The notes beneath the pieces were generated by a model. The model saw only the letters and a list, made by a program, of their open reading frames with translations, searched no databases and was not told the DNA's origin. DNA of 64,000 bases from Eukaryota sp. GEM-RC1. Taxonomy: Eukaryota. Within the stretch, counting starts at the first letter, position 1, and each line of letters starts with the position of its first letter. Made by a program: the position numbers and the translations under genes. Positions 2,691 through 36,500 of this stretch are shown piece by piece. Location of the stretch: positions 434,001 to 498,000 of the forward strand of contig JAUFOQ010000001.1 of assembly GCA_040285855.1 (NCBI GenBank), given 5' to 3'.

Positions 2691-2756
2691 AGTGAATAAA
2701 CATGATTGGACGATCAGAGAGTAGGAAATGTTGATGTTAGGACATTTATGGAGATA

Positions 2757-2935
2757 TAACTTCTTTTGATATTAAGCACATTTAAATATCATAACCTATT
2801 ACAGAAAATTCAAAAATTGTTGAATATTTTTTAAATATTTTGAAACATTTTAAGTTTTTGAAGAAAAGTAAATTTGTTATTTGAAAAATGTAATGAGTTC
2901 GAACCTAGAAGACATACTTGTTTTTACAAAATGAT
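2757..2935. mobile_element. Terminal sequence of the HUH-Rep element family (inverted homolog at ~15850-16027)
   Basis: TAACTTCTTTTG...gtaatgagttcgaacc is the diverged reverse complement of ggttcgaactcattac...CAAAAGAAGTTA. Homology ends sharply at TAAC in both. Confidence 0.8.
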
Positions 2936-3229
2936 TTATTATATCAACAGTAATTCAACTAAAAGAAGGTACGGTCTACAGCTTCGATACGGTGACACTG
3001 TTCTTTTCATCTACCCGACTTTGTCATCACTCCACCAACTTCTGCATAATCATGTTCGTCTCTTTCTGCACATACACACCACCCACATCCTTTACGTGCA
3101 CTATGTTTCTATCAGCATTAACACAGATTCTAATCATTTGACTGTGGTGACACTTCTATATCATATTTTCCGCTATATCTCACACAGTTTACGTTCGAAC
3201 GAAAACAAAGATCTTTTAAAATAAAGAAC

Positions 3230-4085
3230 AAAACAAGATGTAAACAATGTTTACCAAACATGAGACCATCTAATTGGGATTCACATGAAAGTTCTAGTAT
3301 GAGGTGAATATCTTGTAAAAGCGGTTAAGATAGATGGCCTGGAAGAGACAAAAAGGGCACGACATGGATATACTGTTGTGTTGAGAAAATGTTGATGTAA
3401 CAAAACTACATTGTAGATATCATAAGTACTCTCAAAGAAGCAGTCTTGTTTGATGACGTATTAATGAGTCAGAATAGGATTCTTGATGACTCCCCAAAAG
3501 TCACGAACCTCCAACTTAGGTGTAATAGCAATAAATCAATTTGGTTTATCTACTCAAAAGATATCAGAAATATTCAGATCAGGGAGCTTACGATACCTTG
3601 ATAAAAGAAAATGATAATGGAGCTGGGTTGACTTCCCTAAAGACCATCAGAGTGGCTGAAAGTGAGCTAGAATTTGTTGTACAAGAGGAAGAAAGTTTGG
3701 GATCAATTGTTCAACGGCTTTGCATAGACCTTCTTACTGTTCTAGATGTTCTACGGATACCGTTGTGAGTACAATTGGAACAATTGGAACAACACGATGA
3801 AATACAGCACCTTCTTATTTGGACCAACATTACTCAAGTACAACTGTAATAAGCTACACCAATACGACACATAGGCAACAGTTCATCATCAACTAAACTA
3901 GAAACATACTCATGCGACGATGAAAAGGGATATCAATTGACACGCAGAATTCATTTCGGAAAATTGATGTATGGCCTTCAACTAGAAAGAACAATATATG
4001 AACCCAGTTTCTTTTGTGATTTTTACTGTATTTGTAGTTCTCTTCGGCGGAAGAAGGAATTTCTTCCACTCAGAACTTCACAGAG
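3230..4085 (-). pseudogene. Decayed paralog of the SWIM-like/Ulp1-like gene (copy at ~31114-31969)
   Basis: SLVDDELLPMCRIGVAYYSCT..NVGPNKKV aligns with SLVDVVLFHTCRIGVALYTCSCTLSYVDPNKKV at 12120-12260. A possible Q-D-G-x-x-x-G remnant lies near 3250-3290. Confidence 0.65.
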
Positions 4086-4186
4086 ATTACAACTTCTGTA
4101 TGTCATGATTAAATTGCAACACACACTATAATTGTTTCTTATTTTCCTAAGGCTATGTTAAGCCTGTAAAATTTAGGTTATTTCAT

Positions 4187-4534
4187 TTATTGTAACAACT
4201 TCCCTAAATTTGAAACGTTTGATTTTACTACCAATGGTAACTTTCCGTTCACCCAGGATTTATGAAGAACAACTGATGGTTCTTCATCATTATTCGAACA
4301 AAATATAAGATTTTGTTTGTCTTCAATCAAGCAGAAGATTTTGAACGGTTCACGACAAGTTTGAATGTTGTTAATGAAGTTCCGTCTTCTTCTACTGCGT
4401 TGATCGACCGTATAAGAAACTTCTGGTAAAAGTGGAAGTTGTGCTTCAGAATCACTAATTTCTTCATCAGAAGAAGTGTAATCTTTAAGACAAGATTTTT
4501 TGGAACAACAAGTACGAGAAGGTCTTGAAGACAT
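4187..4534 (-). CDS. ORF-x, 115-aa unknown protein of the HUH element (form without SET domain)
   Basis: Open ATG-TAA frame. NIQTCREPFKIFCLIEDKQNLIFCSN..EEPSVVLHKSWV is conserved at 14941-15075 (+). Confidence 0.6.
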   Translation of the reverse strand: MSSRPSRTCCSKKSCLKDYTSSDEEISDSEAQLPLLPEVSYTVDQRSRRRRNFINNIQTCREPFKIFCLIEDKQNLIFCSNNDEEPSVVLHKSWVNGKLPLVVKSNVSNLGKLLQ

Positions 4535-4577
4535 GAAGAAGAGGGATATGAAGAAAATGAAAATTTTTGAAAAATCA

Positions 4578-4630
4578 TGTCAAATGTCAAATGTCATTTG
4601 TCATTTGTCACAACATATAAATAGTTACAT
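4578..4630. promoter_or_regulatory. Five TGTCA repeats at 7-bp spacing plus a TATA-like element between divergent ORF-x and HUH Rep (homologs 14860-14915 and ~36302-36357)
   Basis: TGTCA at 4578, 4585, 4592, 4599 and 4606. TGACA at 14890, 14897, 14904 and 14911 in the second family member. Confidence 0.7.
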
Positions 4631-4642
4631 ACAACATCAACC

Positions 4643-5020
4643 ATGCTTATGACAATCTCATGAGGTGGTGTTGCACCTATCCTGTAACTGGATCAATGTT
4701 CGTCATCTCTCAATGAAAGTTCTCAATGTATTTGGTTCTGATCTTGATGAATGTGTGTTAGTCAAAGAATCCCATGTTCAACATCCCCGACCTCACATTC
4801 ATTTGTATGTAGATGTTTCGTCGTCATTAAGTGAAACAGAACATGTTGTTATTTGATTTATGTCTTCCTTAGAATCAAAAATACTCTCCTGCTCAACAAC
4901 CTCATATTGAAAAAGCTCAAGGAACAACAGATCAGATTATAATCTATCTGTCTAAAGAATCTAAACTTATGTAAAAAAACAAATCTTGATGTGGCTGTAT
5001 TTTGTTTTGAACATTGATAA
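4643..5020 (+). pseudogene. HUH (rolling-circle Rep) endonuclease domain, copy A, frameshifted
   Basis: MLMTI (motif I-like), KESHVQHPRPHIHLYV (motif II), LFDLCLP, PHIEKAQGTTDQIIIYLSKE (motif III YxxK at 4945-4959). Confidence 0.8.
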
Positions 5021-5399
5021 TCTATAGATTCACCTTAAAACAGAATATGATTTACTTTGTTAACCCTAAAAGTGAACTTGAAAAAGGTTGTATTGAGATT
5101 ATATTGACCTTTTATAAACACTCTTTTATTTTATTATAAATGTATATTGACCTTAAGAGTGATCTTAAACAAACGAATATTGTTATGTTTATTAAATATT
5201 GTATGACCTGTTATTTTGTCATAACAGTAATTGAACAGAATGTTCCAGAAGATCTGAAACACTTGCAAATTGTAATTGATATAGTCAAGTCTGAAGCAAT
5301 GAATTCGTATTATCAAAAGCAGTGACTATTATGGACCTACCGATTCATGTGCTTGTTCATATAGTCACATTATTTAATACACCACAATTTTCCAATCTC

Positions 5400-6749: not shown

Positions 6750-7230
6750 TGAAAGAATATATGGGGAGGGTTATTCCCAAAGCATTACCAAGATTGTCAA
6801 AGAATGTGGTGCAAAGTACAAGCAGAGAATGATGGTGATCGGAGAGAAGAGGAAGATTGAACCGGGAGAAGTTGGAGGTGTCCCTTTCCTGTCAGAGTAG
6901 ATGTAGTGACAACGGCAGAAAGTGTATGTTATTCAAAAGTGTATACGTCATCGAATGCTCCTTCTACGATCGTGTCTCGGAGAAAGATATGATCGAGAGG
7001 GAACTTCGATGCCCTGTGTATAGACTTTAATTGAGAAATGCTCCGACCAACTCATGCAGGGAAGAGTGTCATCTCATCTCCTCAGGAAACTGGAGAGGAT
7101 GCTTAAGTGACGTTTAACAGGTGGAAGCGTTGTTATATCATACGTAAGAGAACCAGGGGGATGCTGGATTTAAGGAACATGAAGTAGGTTGAGGAAAAAG
7201 TCTGTTCATTGACGTAATGATGAGTCACAA
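6750..7230 (-). mobile_element. Possible retrotransposon gag remnant
   Basis: LRDTIVEG and a decayed C-x2-H knuckle-like stretch; many stop codons. Confidence 0.3.
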
Positions 7231-7584
7231 CTAGAATCTGCTTGAATTTTGACCTATCTCCTTAAAAAGGCTAGTTCCTTGCTTTTGGTCATTGTTTCCC
7301 TCACCATCATCCCTTCTTGTATGATCAATTATTGTACTCATCCTAGTATTTCTTTATTGTTTAAACGAGTGTTGATCGTATGTTCAGAGTCTACTGTCTG
7401 TCGTTCTGAAACCCACACTTTGATTAGTTCAGCTCAACAGTTGAGGCGTTGTTGAATACTTCTGACACTTTTAGTACTTTCATTGATGTTGTCTCAGCCC
7501 AGTTCGTTCTTTCCCATCCTGATCTGATCTTCACTAACCACTTACTTGTACGAGTTAGGTTGTGTTTCAATTTTGTAGTCCTAT

Positions 7585-8322
7585 TCAGTGGAAGAAGGAA
7601 TTTCTTCCACTCAGAACTTCATAGAAACTTGTATCTGACAAGTGGATGGACGAATCCACAGTATTTATTTTGAAAGGTGATCGTTTAAGTACCAACCGCC
7701 GTGTTGAGAGTGTGTAGTGTTTTTGAAACGGCTGGTTGAGGATGACGTTTACGTCTTCTTGGCAGACCACCCAATAGAAAGCAGGATTTTCATTTTTAAA
7801 GGATTCAAAGCACCAAGGAACAACACGTTTTGCAGTATATACGGCAATACTTCTCATTTGTTCTACAGTTGATGGTCGACAATCGTTGATTCATTAAGTT
7901 GGATACCACTGAAAAACACATCAGAAACTATGGTTTCTACATGCTCATCTGACCATCACACCACACGTATACAGGATCGTGCTTTTTTTAATGGTATTCT
8001 TCTTGGAGATCAAAGGTGTTGTTTCTAGGATGTTGAGGACATCATATGATCTCCTATAGTCAATGCCTAGATCAGTGGTCAGATCTTTGACGCCAAACAT
8101 CCCTTTGATCTGGGCGTATGTTAGGATCCTATTAGTCACGGATTCTAAAGTTTCCCGCTTGCTTGTGACAGGAGCAGGAGTCGATAAGGAGAGGGATTCA
8201 GTTTCAGCCTTCGGTTGAGGGGTAATGGTCGGTATGTGGGTAGAGGAGAGACATTCCCGGTTTATCAAGGTCCCATTGTCAGGGACCAAACCTTTGATCG
8301 TTCGCGCCAGTGCTAAGATCAC
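7585..8322 (-). pseudogene. E2F-like transcription factor, N-terminally truncated and frameshifted
   Basis: ETLESVTNRIL...DLGIDYRRSYDVLNILETTPLISK matches the E2F/DP winged-helix RRxYDxxNVLE motif. YVW and a marked-box-like NPAFYWVVCQEDV follow in shifted frames. Confidence 0.8.
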
Positions 8323-9484
8323 TGTCAGTTCATTGTTTTCTTGAAGTCTTTATGATTCCAAAAATCATCTTCAAATTCAACATCATTGATTGACGTAATT
8401 ATTGAACCAAAGGTATTTTTGAAATAAAATTTTTCCTGTTTTTTCCCTAAAACTTCATTTTCGTCTTTTGTCTTTAACGATTTGTTTTCAAATTTTGTTG
8501 ATGAACCATGATTAAAATTTTGTTCTGAAAGCAAGTCAAGTTGTACACTCTGAAGTAGCTAGTACATAACAAGACATAGATTTTTTCTTGATCTGTTAGT
8601 GTATAATTTTGTCTGATTTTGTTTCTGACGTGCATCAACCATTAATCCTTGTAAAATTGAAGTGACATTTAAACAGACAATCCATCCACAGATAAGGGAC
8701 GATATTGACTGTTCAAAAGGTATATTATAGTCCACCTTATAGTGTGTTAATCTTGCAAACAGATTTGTTTCCCCACATCCATAAACAGTTCTAAAAGGAT
8801 TAACGATTAATTCAGTGGTTAATGAATAAGCCAAAGAATCTTAAATATAGCATAATAATACATTTTCTTCATTTAGAACCAATTCAATAAGAATCCAATG
8901 ACCAGATCCCGCATCACCAGGAACATGTCTTTTCACCAAACGTAATGGGGCAAGAATTCTTTTTCCTGATTTTTAGTGTATCGGCAATAGCCTTACCAGA
9001 ATGTAAGGCATAGCATATTGAATCACTTATCAACTGTTGAGTTTCTTGAGATTGCAGGAACTTGTACTTCTACTTGATTTAAATTTTTGGAATGCAAGCA
9101 TCACAATGAAATCAAGTTCAAAACTCAACAAGAGTTGTGTGTTACCTTCCCTATCATCTTTTGTCAACATTTTCTCAATATCACTAAATCCAAATTTTAA
9201 TTTTGAATTTATGTAAAACTTATCACTGATTAATTCTACAGAAAGGATGAACGGGTTACGTTGGTTTTTGCGTTTCACATGTTGAGATAAATTAGCATTA
9301 TTACTGACTGGAACAGGAACTATTTCAGATGGTTCATAGCAAATATAATGAATATGATTGATTGCGAAGTTATCAATTCGACGTTTTAGTGAAGGAAAAA
9401 CGACTTGAGATGGAGTATCGTCAATGCGAGTATTGTCACAATCATGTAAAAGAGTAGGAGACTGAGGAGGAGGAGGGGAACGAG

Positions 9485-12083
9485 TAGGGTTGTAATTTGA
9501 GTCGAGTCAAACTCACGAGTTTCGAGTTGAGTCAGCCTGACTCGACTCGCTTGACTCATAAGTCAAGTCGAGTCGCCCTTGTATTTCGTGGAGTCAGCCT
9601 GACTCGACTCATATGACTCATGAGTCGAGTCAAGTCAGGAATTTCCAACTCGAGTTGACTCAACTCATTTGACTCGTGAGTCAATACTATAGTGTTTCCC
9701 ATAAAGTACCAATAGCTATCCTAGTTGAATTGAAGTTTAGATTCAAAATATGAAGGTCTTTAATACATTTATATTTTAAAGTGTTTTTTTTATTTTAAGA
9801 AATGATGAAGATGGCGACTGAAAAGGTGGTTTTTCCTTTCATCATTCATGACCAACCAACCAATCCACTATATCAGTGATGACGACGCTCAACCTAGAAT
9901 CATCTCATTTCTAACTTCCCCTCGTTCTGGCTCACAGCGCCTTGAACAAAATCCTTCTACCTCTACCTCTTCATCTGATTCTATTGCTTCTACTTCTACC
10001 TCTTCATCTGATTCTTCTACTTCTCCAAGACAGCGTAGCCTGGAAATAGGTCCTACTACCTCTTCTGCTACTTCTATTACTTCTCCCAGACGTTCTGATG
10101 TTTGGTCTCACATCGCGGACAAGAATCAACATCCAGGCAAAAAGACCTGCATTCATTGTCGTGAACCCACATGGGATGAAAACTCTCTATCTACCTCAAC
10201 CATACGACGACATCTGGATAAAAAGCACCCCAACTGGGATTCTGAAAGCCCTCAACCCACTCGAACTCTTTTTGGTACCCCTGCCGAACAAAAGGCACAA
10301 AAACAAAACCGATTGCAGAAACTGCTAACCCAGTGCATTGTGGATTGTGATTGGTCATTTAACATTGCTGAACATAAAAGTTTTCAAACATTTTTAAAGG
10401 AAATGAATCCTGATTTCAAGCTAAAAAACAGGGTCACGCAGCAGCAATTGTGCAAGACTATGTTTTTCAAGAGATCAATGTCATAAAAACAGCCCTCAGC
10501 CAAGTCAATAGCCGAATCTCGTTGACGGCTGACTTGTGGTCTTCAATTGCAAAGAGTCCATTTCTTGGGGTTACGGCGCATTGGATAGATAATGAGTTCA
10601 ATGCAAAGTCGATTGCATTAGACTTAAAAAAATTACCATTTCCCCATGACCAACCGCACATTGCAACTGCACTCGTTGAAGTTATAAAGGATTTTGCTCT
10701 GGAAAATCGAATCATGGCCATTACCACGGACAATGAACTTGCTATTTGTAATGCTGCAAATTCCGTTTGCTACAACCGTCGTTGTGCTGCTCATGTCCTG
10801 AATATTTGGGCTAATGATTTTATTGAAGCAACTTCACAATACACTCAAAAAGTACTGAAGTTTGTGGTTGAGCTTCATCGCTCCCACAGTGTGTATCAAA
10901 GATTGAAGGCTGTGTTAAACTTAGCAGGGCATAGGGTAAACACTATTCCTATGTACGTTTGCACAAAATGGAATTCCTTTTGCGAAACAATATCAACCTT
11001 TGTAAAACTGAATAATTGTATTGACGAATTCTTGCGAACAGAACCAGAATTATTAAAGTATCTTTTATTGGACACTGAACGAATTCATTTGAATACTATT
11101 GTTGAATTTTTGGGTTTGTTAAAGGACGCTACAGACGATGTAGAAAGCGAGTCATCAACTCTTGCTACTTCAACTGTTGCCTTAAATGAAGTCATTCAGG
11201 CAGCTGGAAAACTGTTGACCGAAAATCAGCCACATGCAATGCAGGATGGAGCCTTAAGGATTTTGAATAAGTGGAGAGATGGAGCCGGATTTAGAACATC
11301 ATACCAGAAGCTACTGTATGACGAAAATGCATTGATAGGAGCAGTACTCGACCCCAGAGTAAAAAACGATCCAAGTCTGCTGCCAGTAGATTTGCTAGAA
11401 GTTGACCCAGGGTTTAGGAAACTTAACCAACTTTTAAATTCAAACCCGACTGTTTTAAGACAAGTTGAAGGAAACGTTCAACTCGGTACCAACGGCAAGG
11501 AGACGAATGCAGGAAAGAAGCGGAGAAAATCCAAGAATGGATTGTTCAGCAAGGTGGCCGGGAAGAAGACCGATCGAGATGTAGAGTTTAATGTACAAGA
11601 TGAACTAAGAGACTACTTTAGTGAAGGAAAAGTCAATCATGACTTGGATCCAGTTGAATGGTGGAGAAATAATCAAGAAAAGTATCCAAAACTCTCTTGT
11701 ATTGCTAAGAATTATCTTTCCATTCAAACAAGTTCTGCTCCAAGTGAGAGGTTGTTTTCAGCTGCTAATCACATTATTAGCAAGAAGCGTGCTCGTTTAA
11801 GTGATGATACTGCAAGGTATTTGCTTTGTTTACGGTCATGGTATTCCAAAAATTTGATTGAAGTTAATAGTAGTATTGATTTTGAGTAGTAGTTCTACAA
11901 CTAGTAGTCTAGGTACTAAATAAAACCGTTTTTAATTCTGGACAATCAAAAGATTCATGAGTCGAGTCGAGTCAGTCGAATTTTGGATGAGTCAGCCTGA
12001 CTCGACTCGCTGGACTCATGAGTCGAGTTGAGTCAAGAATTTTAGACTCGAGTTGACTCGACTCGACTCAAATTACAACCCTA
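9485..12083 (+). mobile_element. Complete hAT DNA transposon, 2599 bp
   Basis: Perfect 24-bp TIRs TAGGGTTGTAATTTGAGTCGAGTC, 8-bp TSD GGAACGAG (9477-9484 and 12084-12091), and GACTC/GAGTC subterminal repeats at both ends. Confidence 0.97.
9848..11889 (+). CDS. hAT transposase with one frameshift near 10445-10450
   Basis: BED finger (SDVWSH..CIHC..STIRRHLDKKH), LTADLWS, ITTDN, RCAAHVLN, LDPR, and dimerization motif WW..YPKLS.IAK.YLSIQTSSAPSERLFS. Confidence 0.95.
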
Positions 12084-12349
12084 GGAACGAGCAATTGTAA
12101 CTCGTTTAACGTCTTTCAGCAATTGAAACAATGAATTAAGAAAACCTTTTTATTTGGATCAACATAACTTAAGGTACAACTACATGTATATAAAGCCACA
12201 CCAATACGACACGTATGAAACAATACAACATCCACTAAACTACAAACATGTACATACGAAGGTACACAGAATTCATGTTGAATAATTCTTGTTTTTGCAT
12301 TCAACTTGGAAGAACAGAATGTGTTCATTGTCTTTTCTTTTTGTTAGTA

Positions 12350-12660
12350 CTACTCTTTAGTAGTGATCGAAAAATACCTATTACAGTTTAGCCTCCCATT
12401 AGTGCAAGCCTTTGGAAACAAGCAAAAAAAAGTCTGCTGATCCACTCAAAGACCTGAAAAACATTGTTCATGTTGAATATTTACTCATCCCATTTGTGAT
12501 TTTTTATGTATGGTCGTTTGGGTAAATTAGCCTTGCAGTTCTTAGATGATTTTGCAGTGATTTTGCAGATAATCTTGCAGTGATTTGCTGCTGAACGGTT
12601 CATGTGATTCTTCGAACTCTTCTTTTCAGGCGTTAGGTGTTCAGCAATCAAGTTCATGGA
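12350..12660 (+). mobile_element. Non-LTR retrotransposon restriction-like endonuclease (RLE) C-terminal remnant (copy at ~33800-34105)
   Basis: LIPFVIFMYGRLGKLALQFL matches the PFVxxxxGxxGxxAxxFL tail of CRE/R2-like elements. Confidence 0.6.
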
Positions 12661-12699
12661 TTTCTGACCATGTTTTCAAGATGTGGTCAGAAACATCTA

Positions 12700-13130
12700 G
12701 GAAAAGGTGTCTCTAATTTGACAGTCTGGATATATTTCATTTTCGTTGAATTGTTATAGCACTTTACGCATTGGAAGAAGTCTTGGAGCCATGACATGTA
12801 GTCGACGTCTTGACTACAGAATTCCTACTTGGTCTCGATACAAAAGGGCCGTCTACTTTCGTCGGCTCATAACCTAGTGTAGGTTTCCAAGCATTGTCAG
12901 GAGGAGTGATTTCAGGAACGATGGTAATCGTATCCTCAGTTTCAACGGGTTTGCAGAGGACGGAGGCTTCAAGGCTGAAGGTGACTGATTGGTTTTAAAA
13001 GATCTTGAGAGGAGAGCGGCACAAGCGATGGTTATTGTTACCTTCAACGTGTACGATTTCTAGGTCAAAGTTTGCAAGGGGGGATCCATCGGGTGACGCG
13101 ACAGAATTCAATAGAAACCCTTTCTTTCAA
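12700..13130 (-). mobile_element. Ty3/gypsy pol remnant (RNase H end; copy at ~34145-34575)
   Basis: RVTRW..LANFDLEIVHVEGNNN matches RWxxxLxxFDxxIxHxxGxxN. Confidence 0.65.
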
Positions 13131-13144
13131 AGAAAGGGGGAAAA

Positions 13145-13610
13145 GGATGTCAATTGACACGCAGAATTCATTTTGGAAAATTCATGTTTGGCCTTCAACT
13201 AGAAAGAAAAATATACGAACCCAGTTTCTATTGTGATTAGTGCTGTATTTTGTAGTTCTATTCAGTGGAAGAAGGAATTTCTTCCACTCAGAACTTCACC
13301 AAGAATAAAAACTCTTGATCGAAATCGGAATCTTCAATTTTCAATAGACTTGATATACATGATTATTTGTAACGAAACAATAGTAATTATGATCATTCTA
13401 CTAAGAGAATATATTGATTTTTATGTAGTTAAGATGATTTCTTTTCAAATAATTTTCAAAATTAATTCAATCAATTTTGATTGACGTCATGAACATCACT
13501 GAAATCAGTGTATTTTTCTGTATAATGTAGGATATTTCATTTATTGTAACAACTTCCCAAAATTTGAAACGTATGGTTTTACGACTACTGAAAAACTTTC
13601 GTTCAGAATC
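13145..13610 (-). mobile_element. Fragment of a further HUH-family element: 3' end of ORF-x, spacer, and 5' part of the Ulp1-like gene
   Basis: 13535-13607 resembles 4181-4252 (VVKPYVSNFGKLLQ*). 13358-13530 is the inverted homolog of 15681-15858. 13151-13298 resembles 3934-4080. Confidence 0.7.
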
Positions 13611-13872
13611 CGTACGTTGCAAATTTAGAGACGACTTCACAATTTGAAATTTTGACAGCATTTATATAAAAATTAATAATGAACAATGTAATTTTTAGAA
13701 TATTTAAAAAATTTTAAATTTTTCAAAAAAAAAGAAAAAAGTTGTCTTTAAAAGTTAACTCAATATTTAACATTAGGTTTATCGATCGAACATAATTCAT
13801 AAACCTAAGGTTAATGTATTTATTTATATTATATAATGATCATTATTAAAAGAACCCAAATTTAACTAAAAT

Positions 13873-14250
13873 TTATTTTGGTAAAAAAGGAATATTTTCA
13901 CCATACGAAATATATAATTCTTCTCCTTGTTTAATATTTCTGGTTGAAATGTACTGAATCACACGACCTTTTTCATTCAGATTAATTTCTTCGGCTTTTG
14001 AATTTAATTCTGATTTAACATTGGTGTTGACATATCTGCCAACACCAAAATCCAAATTGTTATCTGATGCGTCAATAATTAAACCATTTTTTAATTGCCA
14101 CGCATTATCCACATAAATTGGATGAGTACGTGTAGTAATTGTGTCCTATATTTCCCAACAAAATATAGGACTATTTTATTTTAGGAATTCTCTTTTCGGC
14201 AAAGACACCTAAACCAGCATTGGCTCGAAGAGAAGATGTTAAGGAAAGAG
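13873..14250 (-). pseudogene. Compact SET-domain methyltransferase SET1 (duplicate ~35315-35692)
   Basis: NAGLGVFAEKRIPK ... IDASD..FGVGRYVNT ... ISTRNIKQGEELYISYG; frameshifted in the N-terminal half. Confidence 0.9.
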
Positions 14251-14463
14251 GATGTTTGAACTTCGTCGTTTGTTAAGACATTGATATCAATACATTTCAC
14301 TACATCTTTTGTAAGAATACTCTTAGGATTAATAAACATAAATTATTTTCTTTTTTTAAGGTCACTCGTAGGGTTACTATACATTTCATTACATCTTTTT
14401 TTTGGTTACTCTTAGGGTTAACAAAATACATCATAATATTTTTTAAGGTCAAACTATAGGTTA

Positions 14464-14850
14464 TCAATATCCAAAACAAAATACAGTCATATCAAGATTA
14501 ATTTGTTTATATACATAGGGTTTAGATTCTTTTGACAGATAGATTATAATCTGATCTGATGTTCCTTGAAATTTTTCAATGTGAGGTTGTTGAGCAGGAG
14601 AGTATTTTTGGTTCTTAGGAAGACATAAATCAAATAACATAGACTGTTGTTCTGTTGTTTCACTTAATGACGATGAAACATCTACATACAAATGAATGTG
14701 AGGTCGGGGATGTTGAACATGAGATTCTTTGACTAACACACTTTCATCAAGATCAGAACCAAATAGATTGATCTTTCATTGAGAGATGACGAACATTGAT
14801 CCAGTTTCAAGGATAGGGGCAACACCACCTCATGAGATTGTCAACAGCAT
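14464..14850 (-). pseudogene. HUH Rep endonuclease domain, copy B (duplicate 35906-36292)
   Basis: MLLTI...LVKESHVQHPRPHIHLYVDV...MLFDLCLP...QPHIEKFQGTSDQIIIYLSKESKP; stop codons in the first 25 codons. Confidence 0.85.
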
Positions 14851-14934
14851 GGTTGATGTTGTATGTAACTATTCATATGTTGTGAAAAATGACAAATGAC
14901 ATTTGACATTTGACATGATTTCTCAAAAAATTGA

Positions 14935-15600
14935 GGAAGACGCATCTACATTGAGAACATTCAAACTTGTACTGAACCGTTCAAAATATTCTGCTTTATT
15001 GAAGATAAACAAAAGCTTATCTTTTGTTCCAATACTAATGAAGAACCATCAGTTGTTCTTCATTAATCCTGGGTCATTTCTAATTCTAATCTTGATCTAA
15101 GGAAAACAAAATCTCTCACAACTGTTGTCCCTTCTGATCTTCTTGTTTTAAAGTCTCCTAGAAAATTTTTTTCTGTTGTTCAAAGAGCTTCTATATCTCA
15201 CTTTGAAAATGCAATTTTTCGTCTTCAACTTAAACCTTCTCATCTTCATAGTGCTGGTTTAGGTGTTTTTGTAGATGAATTAATTCCTAAGAATAGTATT
15301 GTTCTACATTTTGGTGGTATTTATACCAATGTGGAACCTGAAAGTAAACACAAAGGTGATATTACATATGGATGGCAACTTTTAGAAAATGTATTTCTTG
15401 ATGGTACTAATGTTGATTTAAATTATGGTGTTGGAAGATTTGTTAACACCAGCCATTTATCTCGATGTAATTTAAGAGCAATTAAATTTCAATATCCAGA
15501 TAACTCTTTGGGTATCATTTACAAATCAAGAAAAGAAATTCCCATCGAAACTGAATTACTTGTTCATTATGACACTAATCAATTACCTTTCCGTAGTTGA
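14935..15600 (+). pseudogene. ORF-x fused in frame to SET domain SET2 (duplicate ~36377-37042)
   Basis: A single frame broken only by TAA at 15064-15066 (AAA in copy A). LKPSHLHSAGLGVF..IPKNS...DG...GVGRFVNTS..CNL...SRKEIPIETELLVHY. The N-terminus is deleted relative to 4390-4534. Confidence 0.9.
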
Positions 15601-16027
15601 GTTTCATTTTTTACTAAAAATTTTCTTAAAACAACCCTTAATAAATGCAGTTGCTGGACAGTAAACATTATCATTAAATGCTACATTATACAGAAAAATA
15701 TACTGATTTAAATGATGTTTATGACATCAATCAAAATTGAAATTGAATTAATTTTGAAAACTATTTGAAAAGAAATAATATTAACTATATAAAAATCATT
15801 GTAATTCCTGAGTAGAATGTTCTATATCACTATAGTATTCGTTTTCTAATCATTTTCTTAAAACAGAATTGTCTTTTGGTTCGAACTCATTACATTTTTA
15901 GAATACAAATTTACTTTTCTTCAAAAATTTAAAATGTTTCAAAATATTTACATAATATTTGCAACAGTTTTTGAATTTTCTGTAATAGTTTATGTTATTT
16001 AAATGTACTATATAACAAAAGAAGTTA

Positions 16028-17125
16028 CACCGACATTGGCGCTGTCGGTATCATAGGGTTAGTGTGACTCATTTTGATAACTAAAGTCCAAATACATGAA
16101 CAGAGGAGAACAATTCTGTTACAACCTTCTGTGGATTTCATTTCAGTTGCAATTCCCCGAAATGAAACTTCCCCTCCCAAAATCAGTCCCTTTTTTTCTT
16201 CCATCTTGTGGGGTACTCCTTTGAAATCTTTGAGATCTTTAACCATCGTGAAGACTTTGTCACCGCCAAAATCAATGCTTCTGAATAAACAATGGTTCGA
16301 GCAATGTCTTCCTAAGAATCAAAAATGTTCCAATATTGACGCTGCAGGAATCAACCAAACGCTAGTTATACTTTATCCAACCCGAAATGTAATTTTTGCA
16401 AAAATCTGGTCATACAATAGACCAATGTCCTGATCCTTCCTGCAGGAAATCCAAGCTGAACAACAGAAAGTCCTATCCGAATTCGAATCCAAGAAACCAG
16501 AGAAACACTGCCGACAACTCCAAACGAAGTACTAGACGTGCAAGCCGAAACAATTTTACCTCTGGTAAGAAAATTTGTCGTAACTCACCTAACCAGGTCA
16601 CTGATACGAACCTCGTCAGTAACAAAGACCCCGGCCAAGAAGAAACTTTAGAACTTGACATTTAGTTGCCTAATTTCCTCGACAATGCATATGCCTCCTC
16701 CTCGCCAACATCTGAGAAGTTTACTTCTAAGACTTGCCTGGTTAAATCTGATGCCGAACCACTACAACTTAAGACGCAGTCTCGGAGGAAAGCTCTCGGT
16801 CCACATATTCATCCGTTGAAGCTCGAGGGAGTTGGTTTCCCTGTCGTTTCGGTTCTGGTGGCTGATGACGCTGACTTCTCTCCCGAGGTCCTGTTGTTTG
16901 TTAGAGGCTGACACTGAAGATAAAGCAGTGGTTTGTCCCAAAAAGAACAGCTTTCTCAAGAAGACGGTGAAAGTCAACTCCGTTCCTCTCACTGGAACGT
17001 GGGACATTGCCTGTGAGTGCAATTGCCTGTCTATAGACCAAGCCAAGAAGGCCAATCTGACTCTTGAAGACTCATCATTGTCTTTCACTCTCGCCAATGG
17101 AGAAACGGTTGAGTCTTCAGGAACA
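16028..17125 (+). mobile_element. LTR retrotransposon remnant: PBS-like TGGCGC, gag zinc knuckle, retropepsin (duplicate ~37469-38565)
   Basis: CNFCK-SGHTIDQC (CCHC) at ~16387-16428. VKVNSVPLTGTWDIACECNCLS...FTLANG is retropepsin-like. Confidence 0.8.
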
Positions 17126-17209
17126 GACTATTATTGTTATGTAATGATGCAAATTGCCGTTTTGTCAATTAAATAATAAAAATTTCTTTCACTATTCTGG
17201 TTTGATATC

Positions 17210-17645
17210 AAATATATCTTGAAAAAAGACAAAGAATCTAATAAGAGTTAATTGCAGTCATCAAATCTTGTGAATAAAACAAATATAAATTCCCCAACCA
17301 CGTGCAAGAAAAAGAATGTACATCTGCCTCGAAGAGACGAGCAAATGAATGTAGTTGATGAAGGTGTTTGCAAACCACATGAAACGTCTTTGATTAAAGA
17401 AACAGGTTGACTGATTGATGGGCAGATTCAAAGAAACGATGGCTTACATAACCAACTTTTTTAAAAAATGACGATTGACGTTGAGACAGAACATTTAAAG
17501 ACAATCAAGTGAGGATTGATAAAGATCAATAAAAACTGTTGAAAGCGTAAGTAATTGTAGGAAGAGGTGAGAAACAATGAGAACTAAGCAGACAATGTAT
17601 CAAAGTTAGGTTGCGGGGAGGAGATACTAGAAGAGGAGGAAACAT
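17210..17645 (-). pseudogene. Remnant of a gene head-to-head with each BTB-SPRY gene, possibly F-box-like at its N-terminus (homologs ~23200-24025, 38650-39085, 44590-45409, 57390-58089)
   Basis: Conserved minus-strand frames starting MFPP, then LLSFPP and SVVSRRFFES...FFNQTRFMWF, at all five loci. Confidence 0.45.
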
Positions 17646-17809
17646 TACACTTAACTGCTAGTAAGTGTTACATTATCATCAAATGAACGACTACTCTTCA
17701 GTAAAGGTTCAGGATTAGACAGGAACAATGTAGTTATGTTAAAAAAGCCAAAAGAAGATTGGTCTCCCGTTTTGGTCTCATTTACTTATCTCCTTCTCTA
17801 TTGCTTCTA
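17620..17809. promoter_or_regulatory. Conserved intergenic block upstream of BTB-SPRY genes (likely bidirectional promoter)
   Basis: cacttaactgctag..gtgttacattatcatca.atgaacgactactcttcagt is retained at all five loci, including the diverged one at ~58094-58150. Confidence 0.6.
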
Positions 17810-19405
17810 ATGTCGTTCTCCCTTCCCCCAGCAGAAACTCTTTCCATCATTCTCGATGAACCCTCCCTATGTAACCAAACCATTTCATTCGGCGAGGAAT
17901 CCATTGAAGTAAACAAATCTGTCCTCGCTGCTCATTCCACCTACTTCCGATCCCTCTGGTTCTTGGAGTTCGGCGACAAGCACGATAATCCCATTGACTT
18001 CTCACATCTTCCTGTAAGTTCTGACAACTTCTTCCTCTTCATCAAGTCCTTCTTTGGCAAATCATTCACTTTCGATGAGAGCAACGCCTACAACTTCTTT
18101 TACCTCGTCCACTACTTCCAAGTGGATAAACTCATTGACCAGTTTGAAAACCACCTAAACACTCATCTCATGACCTGGGCTTGGTTAAAACCATTCATTA
18201 AAGAAGCAGATGAAAGAAATGACTTGAGAGCTCTGGAATTCGTTGGTCCTTTCTTTTCTAAGATTGATGACCTTGTGATTGATGACGTGATGGAAATCAC
18301 TACTGAAGGGTTAAAAACGCTTGTAAAATACTGCATTTCCACTCAATCACAGTCGTGGTTCATCAAATCAATGGTCGAATCAATTTTGAATCAAAGTTTC
18401 GATTTGAATGAATTTTTAAATATTCTAAATTCTTGTTCAATTGAAGCCTTTTCTTTTCAACAATGGGATGAGTTTCTGTTTGTTCCTTTAAAAGATCTTG
18501 ACGAATTGGAAGCTGATTTGATGAAATTTTTGTTTACAAGAGTTAAGAATCTTTATTTTGACTCGTTGGTGAAGGAAAATTCTGATTTGAAGGAAGAAAA
18601 TTCTGATTTAACAACCAAAATTACTGATGTAGAAAATAACAATTCTGACTTAAATATATTAACTACTGATTTAACAGCGGAAAATCATACTTTGAAGACA
18701 ACCATTTCTGATTTATCTAAAGAAGTCAATGGTTCAAAAGCTGAAAACTTTCATTTGAAAACAAAAATTTCGGAGTTATCCATGCAAATGTCTAGTTTAA
18801 CTAATGACGTTCAGAATTTAACTGCTACAAAGTCTAACGAAATTGCTAAACTACAACAAGAGATTGAACAACTAAAATAGACAGCTACATCCCCTCAACT
18901 GGTGTCTCAATCAGTTCCTCAATCAAAAATGATTAGATTCTCTCAAACTAGGAAACATTCTCAATTACAAGTTAGTGGGGATAGAAAGAGAGTTGTTGTT
19001 GGAAGTCGAAGTTGGGCGTATAGAAATATCTTGGGAGAAGATCCACTTCTTCCAAGTAATGTGTATACTTGGAAGTTGAGGTACCAGGGGTCTACTGATG
19101 CTCTTTATGTTGGAGTCATTGACGAGTCAAAGTTTGGTGTTGATGATCGTTGTGTCAATGATGCTCACTGTTTTGAAAATAGTGGTGATCGTATTAAAGG
19201 TTGTCTTTCAGGAAAGAAGGCTAAGTGGAACCGTGGTGAATTACTCGAAATCAATGTAAATCTAGTTAATTTCACTTTAACAATCAAATCCGTGAGTAAT
19301 TCTTCAATTAATCTTACTGGAACTCTTCCCAGATTAAGTAGTGGTAATTATTATCCATTTGCTTTATTATGTCATAGGGATCATGTTCTTGAAATCGTTG
19401 AATAA
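17810..19405 (+). pseudogene. BTB-coiled-coil-SPRY/B30.2 protein copy 1 (type A), with in-frame TAG at 18878-18880
   Basis: BTB (VNKSVLAAHSTYFRSLW..F...HYFQVDKL), heptad coiled coil, and SPRY (VYTWKLRY..LYVGVID..GELLEINVNL..YYPFA). The two ORFs are in the same frame. True start is MSFSLPP. Confidence 0.9.
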
Positions 19406-20232
19406 AGTTGATAACATTGTCAGTGTGTGTATTCTCATTCAAAGTAGTGATTCGATTTACTTTTTGAATTCTGAAGCTACATCAATTCGAGCAGAAGCCA
19501 TTAATTACTGACCAGGGACGCCTATTCGATAAAAGGATCAATTTGCTTTTAAAATAGAGCACACTTGACAAAGAAATAGAAGTCGGTCAGTCTACTCTCT
19601 TGTAAAGTTGTAGTTAGTTTAAAAAATTATTGATATAAGTATACAAGTTGTTCGTAAATGAATTAAGACATCTCTCACTGTTTAAAATTTGACGAAATGG
19701 ATTTGAGTATTGTAGTCAATAGAAGAAATTACCAATAACACAAAAGGAGTCGGAGTTAAATCATTTTTTAATGAATAACTAGTAAACACTAACAACTAAG
19801 ACGATTATTAGAATTTGACATAACTTGGGACGAGTTTTGCAGTAAATTATTGTATTTCTTCAATGTTGTGTAACACTAATCATAGTAATTAATCTGTATT
19901 GGTAATTTGTATCACAAAAGAATTGGATAAACGCAAGCAAATTCTCATTCTATGATCATTTAGAAGGAAACAGATTGAAAACTAGTGTTACTTTGGTTGA
20001 AAATATTACGGTATCGTTAACACAAACTATTGTACATGTGTTACATGCAGTCAACGATGAAACAAACCACCAATTTGTCCACTCTGCTGAAATTGTGATT
20101 CTTCACACAAGTCTCGATTTACACATGATAGTTGAAACTGCTGACACATCATAAATTCCACAATGCAAGTAGATCCTTCCATCCATTTTGTTGTTTTCTG
20201 TTAGTAAAATTAATTTTCTTGGAGAAACAATT

Positions 20233-20290
20233 AATGTCAAGAATCTTGTAAGTACTAGTATTGTATCATACTTACAAGATTCTTGACATT
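20233..20290. repeat. Perfect 22-bp inverted repeat with 14-bp spacer (copies 26543-26600, 41618-41675, 47948-48005)
   Basis: AATGTCAAGAATCTTGTAAGTA-ctagtattgtatca-TACTTACAAGATTCTTGACATT. Confidence 0.95.
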
Positions 20291-20839
20291 TAACTAGTCA
20301 TCTGAAAAAAGGTAGAAGAATAATGTGACAAATATATACAAGATCATATCACAAACTGTTTCAGGATAAAACAATTACAATATTAACATATAGTACGATA
20401 CACTGTGAAAGAATTCAGTAAATTACATCGTTCTTTAGTTATATCGATTACATTTATTTGTTGCGACATCTAAATTTTTGTGTGACGATGTTACCATTTT
20501 GGCGTCCGTATGAAGTCTTCAGCAGATCATAACATTTTTCTTGACCACTACACTCTTGATTTCAAAACGCTGACTGTTGTATCAGCCTCATCATCATGAT
20601 TAATTTTCAAACTATTTATACGCTGAATGCAACACATACGTAATCTGCTTGACGTCTTCCTGGCCAGAAAAGTCTCTGCAGACTACCTTCAATACATACA
20701 ATCCTCCATTGATACGTCATCTACAGATATTCAGTGTCTTGTTTATGTTAGATTTGTTTATGTGGTTCATTTTTGTTTTACATAAATTCTACTCTATTCT
20801 TCAATTATTGTTACTCTACTCATCTTCCTTCTGATCTTC

Positions 20840-21000
20840 TTAGTTCACAAGCCAGCACCGGAAGCACATTAATGCAGTTACCGTGGTGTCATCTAACCGG
20901 GAACGCTTCTTAGTTATTACGTTACCAGTTTGTGAAAACAATCGTTCACTACTAACGGAGGTCGCTTGAACGGCTAACATATCCCTTGCTAACAACATCG
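20840..21000 (-). mobile_element. hAT dimerization-domain remnant (copies near 27150, 42230, 48555)
   Basis: LARDMLAVQATSVSSERLFSQTGNVITKKRSRLDDTTVTALMCFRCW. Confidence 0.9.
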
Positions 21001-21107
21001 CGCGCTAGGACGTGGCTCTGATATCTCGTTTATTTTCCTCAGTGGTAATAGCAAAATGAAGTACCCTTCTTCAAAGCAGTTCGTAGCTGGATGAAGTCAA
21101 ATATTTC

Positions 21108-21667
21108 AAGAATTAAAGTGAGGGTTACGAACGTTCAAACCGTTCAGTACAACTTTTTGTTGAAATTAATGGTCCACAATCAACGAAGAGTATGGGATTC
21201 TCGCGAACTCATTGAAAAAACACCCAATCTGTCGGAAAGTGAGGAGTTCTGGCAGGTTTGGGCTGACAGGTTGACTGATGAAACTGTTCAGTGGTCAACA
21301 GATGATTCTCTAGAATTGCTCAGAAGATTTGCTATCACCTGCCCCCGCTCTTCGAATTATTTTTCTCGTCATGAACTTGGAATGAAAGTAACTCAGTTTG
21401 TTGCTGAGAAAATCGGTCAAGCACACAGACAAATAGTTCAGAAACTCGAGATTGAGAAAAAGGATACTCCAAGATGTGTATACTAATGTCTGCTACCTTG
21501 GCTCAAGAACATCTAGTGAGCCAGGACTTCCAGATATTTCTGACTATTTACTTAACAGTACTGACGATGCTTTCGACACTTTTCGTGGCTTCCTACAGCC
21601 AAGAATTCAGTCGCAGATTGACTTGTCGTGAAACGATGAAACAAATGGTCAAACCTGAAGGTTTCTG
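21108..21667 (+). other. Coding-like fragment of unknown family (duplicate ~42494-43053)
   Basis: 131-codon open frame starting at a duplication breakpoint; no motif recognised. Confidence 0.3.
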
Positions 21668-22079
21668 ACTATTAGTATGCTGTTAGTTTGAACATAAAAC
21701 ATTATTAATGTATTATTAAAACATATAATTATTATCCAAATAATGTTCTTTGAGCAGAGCTTTTTTTGCTATAGTTCAAATAGGGAGACTGGCAAGGCTC
21801 TCAATTTTTCCATCCAATATGGTCAAAAAATCCTTTACAGTCCATCTTAATTCTGGAAGAAAGAATATAAATAATCACCAACAGTTTGAAGTACAAGGTG
21901 CAAACTTGACAAGGTTTGAAACCTCCTTCATTTTGTTGCATGAAAAGGTATATCAAAAGCAATGTGAGAATTTCACTTCGTCATTTCCGTTTTCTAACAG
22001 AAATGTAAATGAAGTACACTGAGACTGCAAAGTAACTGTTCTCTGTATAGATTCATTTGACTTACCTCAGTGTCTTCAT

Positions 22080-23110
22080 CAAACCCTATATACATTGACG
22101 ATGACTCTAGTAAAGACCTTTCTCTTATTTGGACACAAGTTGACAACAATGAAAGCTCTAAAAGGCGCAAAAAAAGCAGACAACCAGAATTCTAACAAGT
22201 TGTTTACCAACACCACCAGACGACATTTGGACAAAAACCATCCTAAATGGGACTCTATTAATTCAACCCCTGTGAAAACTCTTTTTGGAACTCTTGCCCA
22301 GAAAAAACCCAAAAGCAATCTCAGCTTCAATCCTAATTCACGTCTGTATTATCTCTTGTGATGTAGTCTTTAGGATCGTTGAACAACCAGTATTTTTACA
22401 AAATTTCAAAGAGCTAGTTGCCGACATTCATACATACATCCATCATATTACGATGTATGTACAATGTTATGGCAAGAAATTTCTCTCTCTCTCTCTTAAG
22501 CAAAGTTTTTCTCCTTTATCACCCACTATTCAAGAAACGAACTCATCCCTTGTGTTAGATGGATGAACTGGTTCTTCTGGTCAACCACTTGCGAATTTAA
22601 TCATTGTTACACTTGATGGTGCAATGTTTTACGATTGTATTAATAGAAAATCTAAAGATGGAAATCCCTTTATATTGAATTTAAAAAATGGTAATAAAAT
22701 AATAAACCCAGCGCACATCACTAACGTTGTAACTGACAATGCTAAACCAATAGTCACTGCTGATGATCTAATTGAACAGAAATTCCTTGCATTATATAGA
22801 CTCGCTGCCATTCGCTCTGTGTACATCTACTTAGAGTCTGATGCTTTCACCCCCAAGTAACCCTCTTAAAGTGACACCCAATGTCATTAGTGAGACTTGT
22901 CTGAAACCTGCATTTATTCTCAACTCACTTCTCCCATGGATACTGATTCAACCAAGGTAGTTCGGTACTCATCAACTTAACAACAATTACCTTGATTCCA
23001 TCTTAGTGATGACAAACTTTAGTTGTACTTTAATTATACATATTTATTAAACTGAACCATGGTTCAGAACCTGTTCAGTTCAAAGAGGTGCTGAACTGAA
23101 TTGAACCATT
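22080..23110 (+). mobile_element. Degenerate hAT-like remnants (BED finger and DUF659-like catalytic part; duplicate ~43466-44494)
   Basis: TTRRHLDKNHPKWDS..TLFG parallels the intact transposase. SLVLDG*T...NLIIVT..GAMFY and VVTDNA follow. AACTGAAC repeats at 23050-23108. Confidence 0.75.
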
Positions 23111-27419: not shown

Positions 27420-27615
27420 TTTATCCACGTGGATAGCCATCCAATTCAAGCTTAACAAGGTAGAAAAAGTGTTTATTTTGTGACAAAGTTTCCACTCATG
27501 CTGAAGAAGTAGGACAACAGCATGCTTTAGTTAATAGCGAGATCCAGTATATACCAAAAAATGCTACTCGTCTTTGTCAACCTGCTGACAGCTTTGTCAT
27601 CCAAAAGATCAAACC
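27420..27615 (+). mobile_element. pogo/Tigger-type DDE transposase remnant (copy ~48822-49017)
   Basis: IQYIPKNATRLCQPADSFVIQKIK matches the xPxNxTxxxQPxD motif. Confidence 0.75.
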
Positions 27616-33529: not shown

Positions 33530-36500
33530 GGAACGAGCAATTGTAACTCGTTTAACGTCTTTCAGCAATTGGAAACAATGAATTAAGAAAACCTTTTTAT
33601 TTGGATCAACATAACTTAAGGTACAACTACATGTATATAAAGCCACACCAATACGACACGTATGAAACAATACAACATCCACTAAACTACAAACATGTAC
33701 ATACGAAGGTACACAGAATTCATGTTGAATAATTCTTGTTTTTGCATTCAACTTGGAAGAACAGAATGTGTTCATTGTCTTTTCTTTTGTTAGTACTACT
33801 CTTTAGTAGTGATCGAAAAATACCTATTACAGTTTAGCCTCCCATTAGTGCAAGCCTTTGAAACAAGCAAAAAAAAGTCTGCTGATCCACTCAAAGACCT
33901 GAAAAACATTGTTCATGTTGAATATTTACTCATCCCATTTGTGATTTTTATGTATGGTCGTTTGGGTAAATTAGCCTTGCAGTTCTTAGATGATTTTGCA
34001 GTGATTTTGCAGATAATCTTGCAGTGATTTGCTGCTGAACGGTTCATGTGATTCTTCGAACTCTTCTTTTCAGGCGTTAGGTGTTCAGCAATCAAGTTCA
34101 TGGATTTCTGACCATGTTTTCAAGATGTGGTCAGAAACATCTAGGAAAAGGTGTCTCTAATTTGACAGTCTGGATATATTTCATTTTCGTTGAATTGTTA
34201 TAGCACTTTACGCATTGGAAGAAGTCTTGGAGCCATGACATGTAGTCGACGTCTTGACTACAGAATTCCTACTTGGTCTCGATACAAAAGGGCCGTCTAC
34301 TTTCGTCGGCTCATAACCTAGTGTAGGTTTCCAAGCATTGTCAGGAGGAGTGATTTCAGGAACGATGGTAATCGTATCCTCAGTTTCAACGGGTTTGCAG
34401 AGGACGGAGGCTTCAAGGCTGAAGGTGACTGATTGGTTTTAAAAGATCTTGAGAGGAGAGCGGCACAAGCGATGGTTATTGTTACCTTCAACGTGTACGA
34501 TTTCTAGGTCAAAGTTTGCAAGGGGGGATCCATCGGGTGACGCGACAGAATTCAATAGAAACCCTTTCTTTCAAAGAAAGGGGGAAAAGGATGTCAATTG
34601 ACACGCAGAATTCATTTTGGAAAATTCATGTTTGGCCTTCAACTAGAAAGAAAAATATACGAACCCAGTTTCTATTGTGATTAGTGCTGTATTTTGTAGT
34701 TCTATTCAGTGGAAGAAGGAATTTCTTCCACTCAGAACTTCACCAAGAATAAAAACTCTTGATCGAAATCGGAATCTTCAATTTTCAATAGACTTGATAT
34801 ACATGATTATTTGTAACGAAACAATAGTAATTATGATCATTCTACTAAGAGAATATATTGATTTTTATGTAGTTAAGATGATTTCTTTTCAAATAATTTT
34901 CAAAATTAATTCAATCAATTTTGATTGACGTCATGAACATCACTGAAATCAGTGTATTTTTCTGTATAATGTAGGATATTTCATTTATTGTAACAACTTC
35001 CCAAAATTTGAAACGTATGGTTTTACGACTACTGAAAAACTTTCGTTCAGAATCCGTACGTTGCAAATTTAGAGACGACTTCACAATTTGAAATTTTGAC
35101 AGCATTTATATAAAAATTAATAATGAACAATGTAATTTTTAGAATATTTAAAAAATTTTAAATTTTTCAAAAAAAAAGAAAAAGTTGTCTTTAAAAGTTA
35201 ACTCAATATTTAACATTAGGTTTATCGATCGAACATAATTCATAAACCTAAGGTTAATGTATTTATTTATATTATATAATGATCATTATTAAAAGAACCC
35301 AAATTTAACTAAAATTTATTTTGGTAAAAAGGAATATTTTCACCAAACGAAATATATAATTCTTCTCCTTGTTTAATATTTCTGGTTGAAATGTACTGAA
35401 TCACACGACCTTTTCATTCAGATTAATTTCTTCGGCTTTTGAATTTAATTCTGATTTAACATTGGTGTTGACATATCTGCCAACACCAAAATCCAAATTG
35501 TTATCTGATGCGTCAATAATTAAACCATTTTTTAATTGCCACGCATTATCCACATAAATTGGATGAGTACGTGTAGTAATTGTGTCCTATATTTCCCAAC
35601 AAAATATAGGACTATTTTATTTTAGGAATTTTCTTTTCGGCAAAGACACCTAAACCAGCATTGGCTCGAAGAGAAGATGTTAAGGAAAGAGGATGTTTGA
35701 ACTTCGTCGTTTGTTAAGACATTGATATCAATACATTTCACTACATCTTTTGTAAGAATACTCTTAGGATTAATAAACATAAATTATTTTCTTTTTTTAA
35801 GGTCACTCGTAGGGTTACTATACATTTCATTACATCTTTTTTTAGGTTACTCTTAGGGTTAACAAAATACATCATAATATTTTTTTAAGGTCAAACTATA
35901 GGTTATCAATATCCAAAACAAAATACAGTCATATCAAGATTAATTTGTTTATATACATAGGGTTTAGATTCTTTTGACAGATAGATTATAATCTGATCTG
36001 ATGTTCCTTGAAATTTTTCAATGTGAGGTTGTTGAGCAGGAGAGTATTTTTGGTTCTTAGGAAGACATAAATCAAATAACATAGACTGTTGTTCTGTTGT
36101 TTCACTTAATGACGATGAAACATCTACATACAAATGAATGTGAGGTCGGGGATGTTGAACATGAGATTCTTTGACTAACACACTTTCATCAAGATCAGAA
36201 CCAAATAGATTGATCTTTCATTGAGAGATGACGAACATTGATCCAGTTTCAAGGATAGGGGCAACACCACCTCATGAGATTGTCAACAGCATGGTTGATG
36301 TTGTATGTAACTATTCATATGTTGTGAAAAATGACAAATGACATTTGACATTTGACATGATTTCTCAAAAAATTGAGGAAGACGCATCTACATTGAGAAC
36401 ATTCAAACTTGTACTGAACCGTTCAAAATATTCTGCTTTATTGAAGATAAACAAAAGCTTATCTTTTGTTCCAATACTAATGAAGAACCATCAGTTGTTC

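Follow-up and report, generated by a model that had tools for sequence, protein, structure and literature searches.

The 64,000 nt of Eukaryota sp. GEM-RC1 analysed here (contig JAUFOQ010000001.1, positions 434,001 to 498,000; hereafter "the window", with coordinates counted from its first base) carry a real multi-copy element, now decayed, with a very divergent stand-alone Rep. We give about even odds (roughly 0.5) to the reading that its copies are the broken remains of a rolling-circle, copy-in transposon with a predicted HUH/Y1 Rep of ca. 120 aa, no helicase, and one or two SET genes as cargo. Directly supported are the Rep motifs, the shared early stop, the lack of a helicase, the Rep-spacer-SET1 layout, and one sharp end. 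Against the transposon reading, the window holds no intact copy, no right end, and no full empty site.

A first-pass annotation of this DNA had proposed a multi-copy element in which a helicase-less CRESS-type HUH Rep is linked to a SET gene. Profile tests speak for this proposal, as does a third copy of ORF-x/SET that lies outside the window. The annotation had also recognized that all element copies within the window are broken.

Genomic context

GEM-RC is a Skoliomonas isolate, described as an anaerobic free-living metamonad (10.1101/2023.05.03.539051). The window is AT-rich eukaryotic DNA composed of tandem units: positions 1-4279 are found again at 27881-32163, 10714-30639 at 32160-52042, and 1-2757 at 49284-52042. 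From these match coordinates it follows that the second unit lacks 4279-10714 and that the third unit exits the array at 52042. The three units (1-52042) are ca. 99% alike, and BTB/coiled-coil genes have been multiplied with them (17705, 24118, 39145, 45523); a diverged copy of such a gene is located at 58165. Fragments of a DDE_3 transposase and of further hAT elements occur at 880-1179 (+), 20852-20992 and 27164-27304 (-), and 22188-22425 (+). The features of the element and its surroundings are listed in Table 1.

Table 1. Features of the element copies and of neighbouring sequences in the window
Feature	Position	Strand	Remark
Left end, copy A type	2757..2936	+	Junction 2756/2757; also the exit of the third tandem unit from the array (52042)
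Arm of copy A with the preceding R repeat and linker	3924..4251	+	Colinear with copy C
ORF-x N-terminal part, copy A	4251..4534	-	89% to P0009 residues 1-95; SET part deleted
TGTCA spacer, copy A	4577..4610	+	
Rep copy A	4660..5020	+	Motif I WCCTY, motif II E..HIH, motif III YLSK; several frameshifts, one stop; ends TGA TAA
45-nt repeats, copy A	5047..5195	+	Homology with B stops at 5195, no SET afterwards
Decayed Ulp1-like frame	8562-9029	-	HW..L, DSL, and Q....CG motifs by eye
Copy C	13141..13605	+	A-type left-arm fragment: 170-nt repeat R, then arm; abuts the tail of copy B
SET2	13873..14260	-	Copy B only, frameshifted; Pfam SET E 1e-6
45-nt (15-codon) tandem "NPKS" repeats, copy B	14290..14451	-	ATG 14434, counterpart ATG 5047 in copy A
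Rep copy B	14461..14833	-	HUH/Y1 nuclease, ca. 123 codons, ends TGA TAA
TGTCA spacer, copy B	14883..14916	-	Five 7-nt TGTCA-core repeats between divergent genes
ORF-x/SET1, copy B	14938..15600	+	N-terminal part (start deleted, one stop), then SET domain; Pfam SET E 2.3e-5
AT-rich left arm, copy B	15678..16027	-	Homology with copy A stops at 16027
7-bp hairpin	16029..16049	-	AACTTC 2 nt later on the Rep strand; candidate origin
Rep of B' (tandem duplicate of copy B)	35903..36275	-	Zero substitutions vs. B

The Rep reading frame

Copies A and B have opposite orientation, as previously noted, and are 88.7% alike over 564 nt, which cover the spacer, the Rep gene, and the first repeats. As B recurs unchanged in the second tandem unit, the number of independent Rep copies is two rather than three.

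Motifs II and III and the FDL/PHIEK stretch are found where the first-pass annotation placed them. Its motif I (xLT, in the first ca. 25 codons) belongs to a wrong frame, which needs two TGA codons common to A and B. A corrected frame, obtained by comparing the indels of A and B, begins at ATG 4660 and 14833, opens with WCC(T/P)Y, and is free of stops common to both copies. Pro occupies the Thr position of motif I in copy B, and the damage of this copy (one stop, one frameshift) is confined to the first 21 codons. The distance from motif I to motif II is 40 residues in the corrected frame and 47 in the earlier one, compared to 35-41 in 28 of the 31 reference Reps that could be parsed. All four columns that are invariant in 37 reference Reps are matched (E, H, Y, K). 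Of the near-invariant residues, the His ahead of motif III is matched, but a Gly, an Asp, and a further Gly are not. Read-through of TGA, or an alternative genetic code, was rejected because the two shared TGA codons disappear upon frame correction.

In both copies, the double stop closes the Rep frame ca. 20 codons past YxxK, and alignable DNA which does not code for a helicase continues beyond it. A Rep-repeat-SET fusion was considered and rejected: the frame of copy A enters the repeats only via three stops, one of them common to B. Because of these three intervening stops, we prefer two separate genes.

Relationship to CRESS Reps

The libraries searched did not name the Rep. A Pfam scan with HMMER filters on (in a Pfam set for which the presence of the Replitron model PF21859 is unverified) listed no family, and there was no match in PHROGs (best E 0.18), NCBIfam, or the PDB sequences. 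With a query that had the earlier N-terminal frame, no relative was detected among 1.84 billion representative proteins or in a 5.8-billion protein set (70-224 and 225-2000 aa). A peptide search of viral and metagenome contigs returned nothing, nor did searches of plasmids and phages; of the motif-pattern searches of viral and metagenome contigs, one returned a single locus (L146) and the other none.

Because no library named the Rep, we built our own CRESS Rep profile, for which 38 sequences were retained out of 182 loci after removal of short pieces and of sequences more than 70% alike. Corrected copy A, with an X at each break, scores 24.5 bits (19.6 with the earlier start). It aligns over profile positions 14-102, spanning all three motifs, with CCTY placed on motif I (UUTU); the best shuffle reached 9.6 bits, and none of 3,000 attained the score of copy A. 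Copy B rises from 17.6 bits in the earlier frame to 18.5 bits in the corrected one, a value reached by 0 of 3,000 shuffles; for the earlier frame, the best of 3,000 shuffles scored 7.9 bits, and its own score had been 12.3 bits with a 24-sequence profile before it became 17.6 with 38 sequences. When the window was cut into 1,284 six-frame tiles, the top seven on the CRESS Rep profile were all Rep copies. With hhalign, the value was 52% for the earlier frame and no more than 78% for the corrected one. The N-terminal part alone is not significant (-1.7 to 4.6 bits).

It is very unlikely that the frame is not a Rep at all, with chance HUH-like motifs in a decayed gene of a SET-bearing repeat. Such a reading would agree with the lack of a library match in any database searched and with a single-sequence structure model of pLDDT 35 that has no fold match; moreover, the profile was chosen on a hint from the first-pass annotation. 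It is opposed by the E-value of copy A (1.6e-9 as a single comparison, ca. 4e-5 when scaled to 24,736 families), by three motifs in order and at usual spacing, and by the fact that a better motif I emerged in a frame which the annotation had not used. A structure model made with the CRESS alignment, a circular test in which the earlier N-terminus was used, has pLDDT 71 and CRESS Reps as top matches (E 3.6e-3). We consider it very likely that the frame is a Rep.

Compared one by one, begomovirus Reps come closest within the 38-sequence set (E 2.5e-5 to 1e-3). A placement with either geminiviruses or circoviruses was tried and given up, since neither sub-profile is favoured (copy A scores 13.3 vs. 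15.0 bits, copy B 9.4 vs. 9.4).

Helicase, origin, and capsid

The claim that the element is helicase-less holds, with no Walker A motif in 1-27880. A 26-sequence CRESS helicase profile had no match in the element (best E 0.24, outside the element). The nonanucleotide origin HAGTATTAC has 0 matches in the window, and looser matches are in none of the hairpins surveyed. No capsid gene was found among the ORFs scanned with Pfam and PHROGs, a scan which a decayed divergent capsid would escape; nor did these general, not dedicated, profiles reveal a packaging ATPase, polymerase, or helicase among the scanned ORFs. Rfam has no match in 2600-17500. PMC6668415 states that helicase loss is not known from any CRESS or pCRESS group.

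These results bear on the possibility that the copies are the fossil of an ordinary CRESS virus. In this case, a Rep fragment truncated behind its nuclease domain would have integrated a single time next to a SET gene, and its later copying would have been passive, through duplication or through some other element. The comparison of A and B gives no significant coding constraint (pN/pS 0.37, p 0.08 for 94 core codons; 0.66, p 0.29 for 109 codons), so that a single fragment which was itself already defunct could be ancestral to both. A fossil would also be in line with the large tandem duplications that make up the region, with begomovirus Reps as nearest single sequences, and with the endogenous CRESS elements, some of them in tandem, that are reported for Entamoeba and Giardia (PMC7493932). 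However, neither a helicase remnant nor a nonanucleotide origin is seen, the same double stop closes the frame in both copies with a matched ATG opening the repeats, and the left flanks of A and B differ. In addition, the Rep falls below every CRESS Pfam model, on which control Reps score 36-72 bits. We judge a CRESS virus fossil to be rather unlikely, and the transposon remains our preferred reading.

Spacer and SET genes

The TGTCA spacer is common to A and B, as had been described, with 64 of 66 bases identical. Its repeats are candidate Rep-binding iterons or promoter elements. ORF-x is indeed divergently oriented; rather than a gene in its own right, it is the N-terminal part of a SET gene, as protein P0009 joins both halves. 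P0009 is the sole relative found outside the window. NCBI assigns it to Eukaryota sp. GEM-RC1, and it likely represents another locus of the same genome; the Atlas returned SET/PR look-alikes for it. SET1 of copy B is 69% identical to P0009 over 152 aa, and ORF-x exists in three differing copies (A, B, and P0009).

The reported succession of "NPKS" repeats and SET domain applies to copy B but not to copy A, the two copies being different downstream of the 45-nt repeats. SET2 is 34% identical to SET1 over 74 aa. Both pass the Pfam SET gathering score of 22.4 (SET1 25.2 bits, SET2 29.6 bits). Both carry Thr at the position that the NH-motif His usually occupies in SET domains, and their activity is uncertain for this reason.

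Ends of the element and hairpins

The AT-rich terminus shared by A and B was confirmed (2757-2936 vs. 16027-15848, 87%), and the left flanks of the two copies are unrelated. In the third tandem unit, the left flank of A is followed by other DNA without the element, and the left junction is thereby fixed to within one base. It fits an insertion between A and T. The first unit does not contain the right flank, so the junction is one-sided; it can represent either an insertion that was later cut by rearrangement or the tandem-array break itself. The sharp end of the element is also the breakpoint of a tandem array with a unit size of 21-28 kb, as the last unit exits exactly at this left end (52042). 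No second copy defines the right end that had been assigned to 13630.

The left end of copy B is 2 bases away from the foot of the 7-bp hairpin. In copies A and C, the arm is preceded by the 170-nt repeat R. R is found at 3924-4092, 7570-7625, and 13141-13310, bears the palindromic TGTCAATTGACA close to its start and a strong hairpin towards its end, and may be a small element of its own. Its 10-bp hairpin, which is unlike that of copy B, folds at z -3.6 and is followed by AACTTC (in copy C, hairpin 13264-13288 and AACTTC at 13292). AACTTC is thus located 2-4 nt after two unrelated hairpins, one per subfamily, on the Rep strand. Within six offsets, it accompanies 3 of 38 hairpin sides in unique DNA (two hairpin types), the chance being ca. 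0.004 per side for a motif that was chosen post hoc. A fourth hairpin side (4049) misses AACTTC by one.

Several further structures were observed near the ends. A fourth left-arm fragment (5833-5930) is followed by a half match (20/27 bases) to the 16029 hairpin in opposite relative orientation. At the boundary between copy C and the copy B tail, an imperfect 30-bp inverted repeat (13543-13643) possibly marks a fold-back junction; as a strong hairpin it was rejected because it folds at only z -2.0. Directly past the hairpin of copy B, TAGGGTTAGTG (16054-16064) resembles the hAT end at 9485, and its partner end is absent from the window.

Ulp1-like and E2F frames

An Ulp1 protease gene had been counted as part of the element. 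The Ulp1-like frame lies outside 13630-16027, 3.5 kb from Rep A, and has no match in Pfam (at E 1), NCBIfam, PDB, or the Atlas. Support from a two-sequence profile is weak (5.2 bits, with 6 of 3,000 shuffles as high). The frame adjoins an E2F/DP winged-helix frame (7945-8349, -; Pfam E 6e-9), which is downstream of it and lacks a start codon.

A hAT transposon (9485-12083) interrupts the Ulp1/E2F stretch. Its 24-nt inverted repeats are perfect, the target duplication measures 8 nt, and the element has a BED finger as well as a transposase that is split. Through the deletion of the second tandem unit, ORF-x DNA is joined to this hAT element at a 5-nt shared sequence (4279/10714), resulting in a 405-aa predicted protein, P0008.

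With the hAT element removed, the Ulp1-like and E2F frames sit between two copies of R. Since the left arms of A and C likewise follow a copy of R, the copies could be remnants of a larger (at least 10 kb) virus-like or Helitron-like element with a stand-alone HUH gene, a separate helicase gene, and SET, Ulp1, and E2F-like cargo. The M-R-arm stretch, found with unchanged order both at 3781-4251 and at 12122-13605, would suit such an element. Separate HUH and helicase genes are reported for mriyaviruses (PMC11253617) and some Polinton-like viruses (10.64898/2026.06.19.733378), and both SET and Ulp1 cargo are known in Helitron-like elements. We nevertheless regard a larger element as unlikely. 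No capsid, packaging ATPase, polymerase, or helicase was found among the scanned ORFs, the DNA left of Rep A is unlike the Ulp1/E2F stretch, and the best match reported for the mriyavirus HUH protein in PMC11253617 is rudiviral rather than CRESS.

Proposed mechanism and significance

If the copies derive from a rolling-circle transposon, Rep would bind to the TGTCA repeats or the hairpin and nick one strand beside the hairpin, just before AACTTC. It would stay attached through its Tyr and join the nicked end to the target. Single-stranded DNA would be supplied by a host helicase or a replication fork, as proposed for Replitrons and IS91 in the account given by PMC10288648. With weak termination, right parts would vary, and extreme cases would show long read-through; under this mechanism, the loose right end would result from poor termination. 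The SET proteins would methylate lysines, perhaps of chromatin; whether this might serve to counter silencing, as the first-pass annotation suggested, is speculative.

A considerably bolder version, which we find doubtful, is that of a fifth independent HUH transposon group: a minimal CRESS-type nuclease of ca. 120 aa without helicase or oligomerisation domain, which would nick at a hairpin-AACTTC origin and bring along SET methyltransferases of its own. One-ended read-through in rolling-circle mode would then have generated the 21-28 kb array that multiplies the host's BTB-domain genes.

In the literature surveyed, two eukaryotic HUH transposon groups are described, Helitrons and Replitrons. 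A stand-alone CRESS-type Rep in a multi-copy element would, if true, be another transition from virus or plasmid to transposon. It would concern a lineage for which hardly any mobile DNA has been described, and no such transposase would be smaller. If the element end also seeds 20-kb tandem arrays, this would provide a mechanism for gene-family growth in these genomes.

Comparison with known systems

The element had been called Replitron-like, which is acceptable for a possible mechanism but not for membership. As described in PMC10288648, Replitrons are likewise eukaryotic and helicase-less, with one catalytic Tyr and a Rep related to CRESS Reps; they share a precise left end, a hairpin near an end, and a tie to rearrangement breakpoints. 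Their ends carry short direct repeats; here, AACTTC accompanies the left end and also follows the R hairpins, the right end being undefined. In contrast to the HUQ, GYxxK, and SUTU motifs given for Replitrons (PMC10288648), the element has HIH, IYLSK, and WCCTY. Replitrons have a second domain of ca. 90 aa, whereas the Rep described here ends ca. 20 codons past motif III in both copies. In addition, the element carries SET genes, and metamonads are absent from the Replitron hosts listed in that paper.

With the Reps of CRESS viruses and pCRESS9 (Geminiviridae, Circoviridae; PF00799, PF02407), the element Rep shares the three nuclease motifs, an upstream Glu, FDL, and the His before motif III, but it is devoid of the oligomerisation and SF3 helicase domains. 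Divergent genes around a spacer with short repeats are reminiscent of CRESS-DNA viruses; unlike these, the element has no nonanucleotide origin, and no capsid gene was found among the scanned ORFs. Endogenous CRESS elements of Giardia and Entamoeba are similar in being Rep-like DNA, sometimes in tandem, in genomes of anaerobic protists. According to PMC7493932, they match living viruses at high identity, while the Rep of the element has no detectable close relative and resides beside SET genes.

Rolling-circle elements with SET or Ulp1 cargo are known among Helitron-like elements (SET in proto-Helentron-Pi, PMC4067079; Ulp1, PMC11417382), and the junction at 2757 would fit their insertion between A and T. 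They are described as encoding a large Y2 Rep-Pif1 helicase transposase (PMC4067079, PMC11417382), whereas we find a Y1 nuclease of ca. 120 aa from another lineage; one Tyr motif, ca. 123 codons, and the lack of Walker A speak against a Helitron. Mriyaviruses (PMC11253617) and Zora-type Polinton-like viruses (10.64898/2026.06.19.733378) resemble the element in having a stand-alone HUH endonuclease gene and occurring in unicellular eukaryotes. As characterized in these sources, they are 35-45 kb long and have capsid, packaging ATPase, and helicase genes, none of which was seen among the scanned ORFs of the element.

Judged by these sequence features, the element is neither a Helitron nor a standard CRESS virus, nor is it a Replitron by membership. 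In the main texts of the openly accessible literature, we came across no account that combines a helicase-less Rep of the CRESS type with SET genes. The combination with SET and Ulp1 genes had been put forward as undescribed; it is the Rep type that is new, while SET and Ulp1 cargo in rolling-circle elements had already been published (PMC4067079, PMC11417382).
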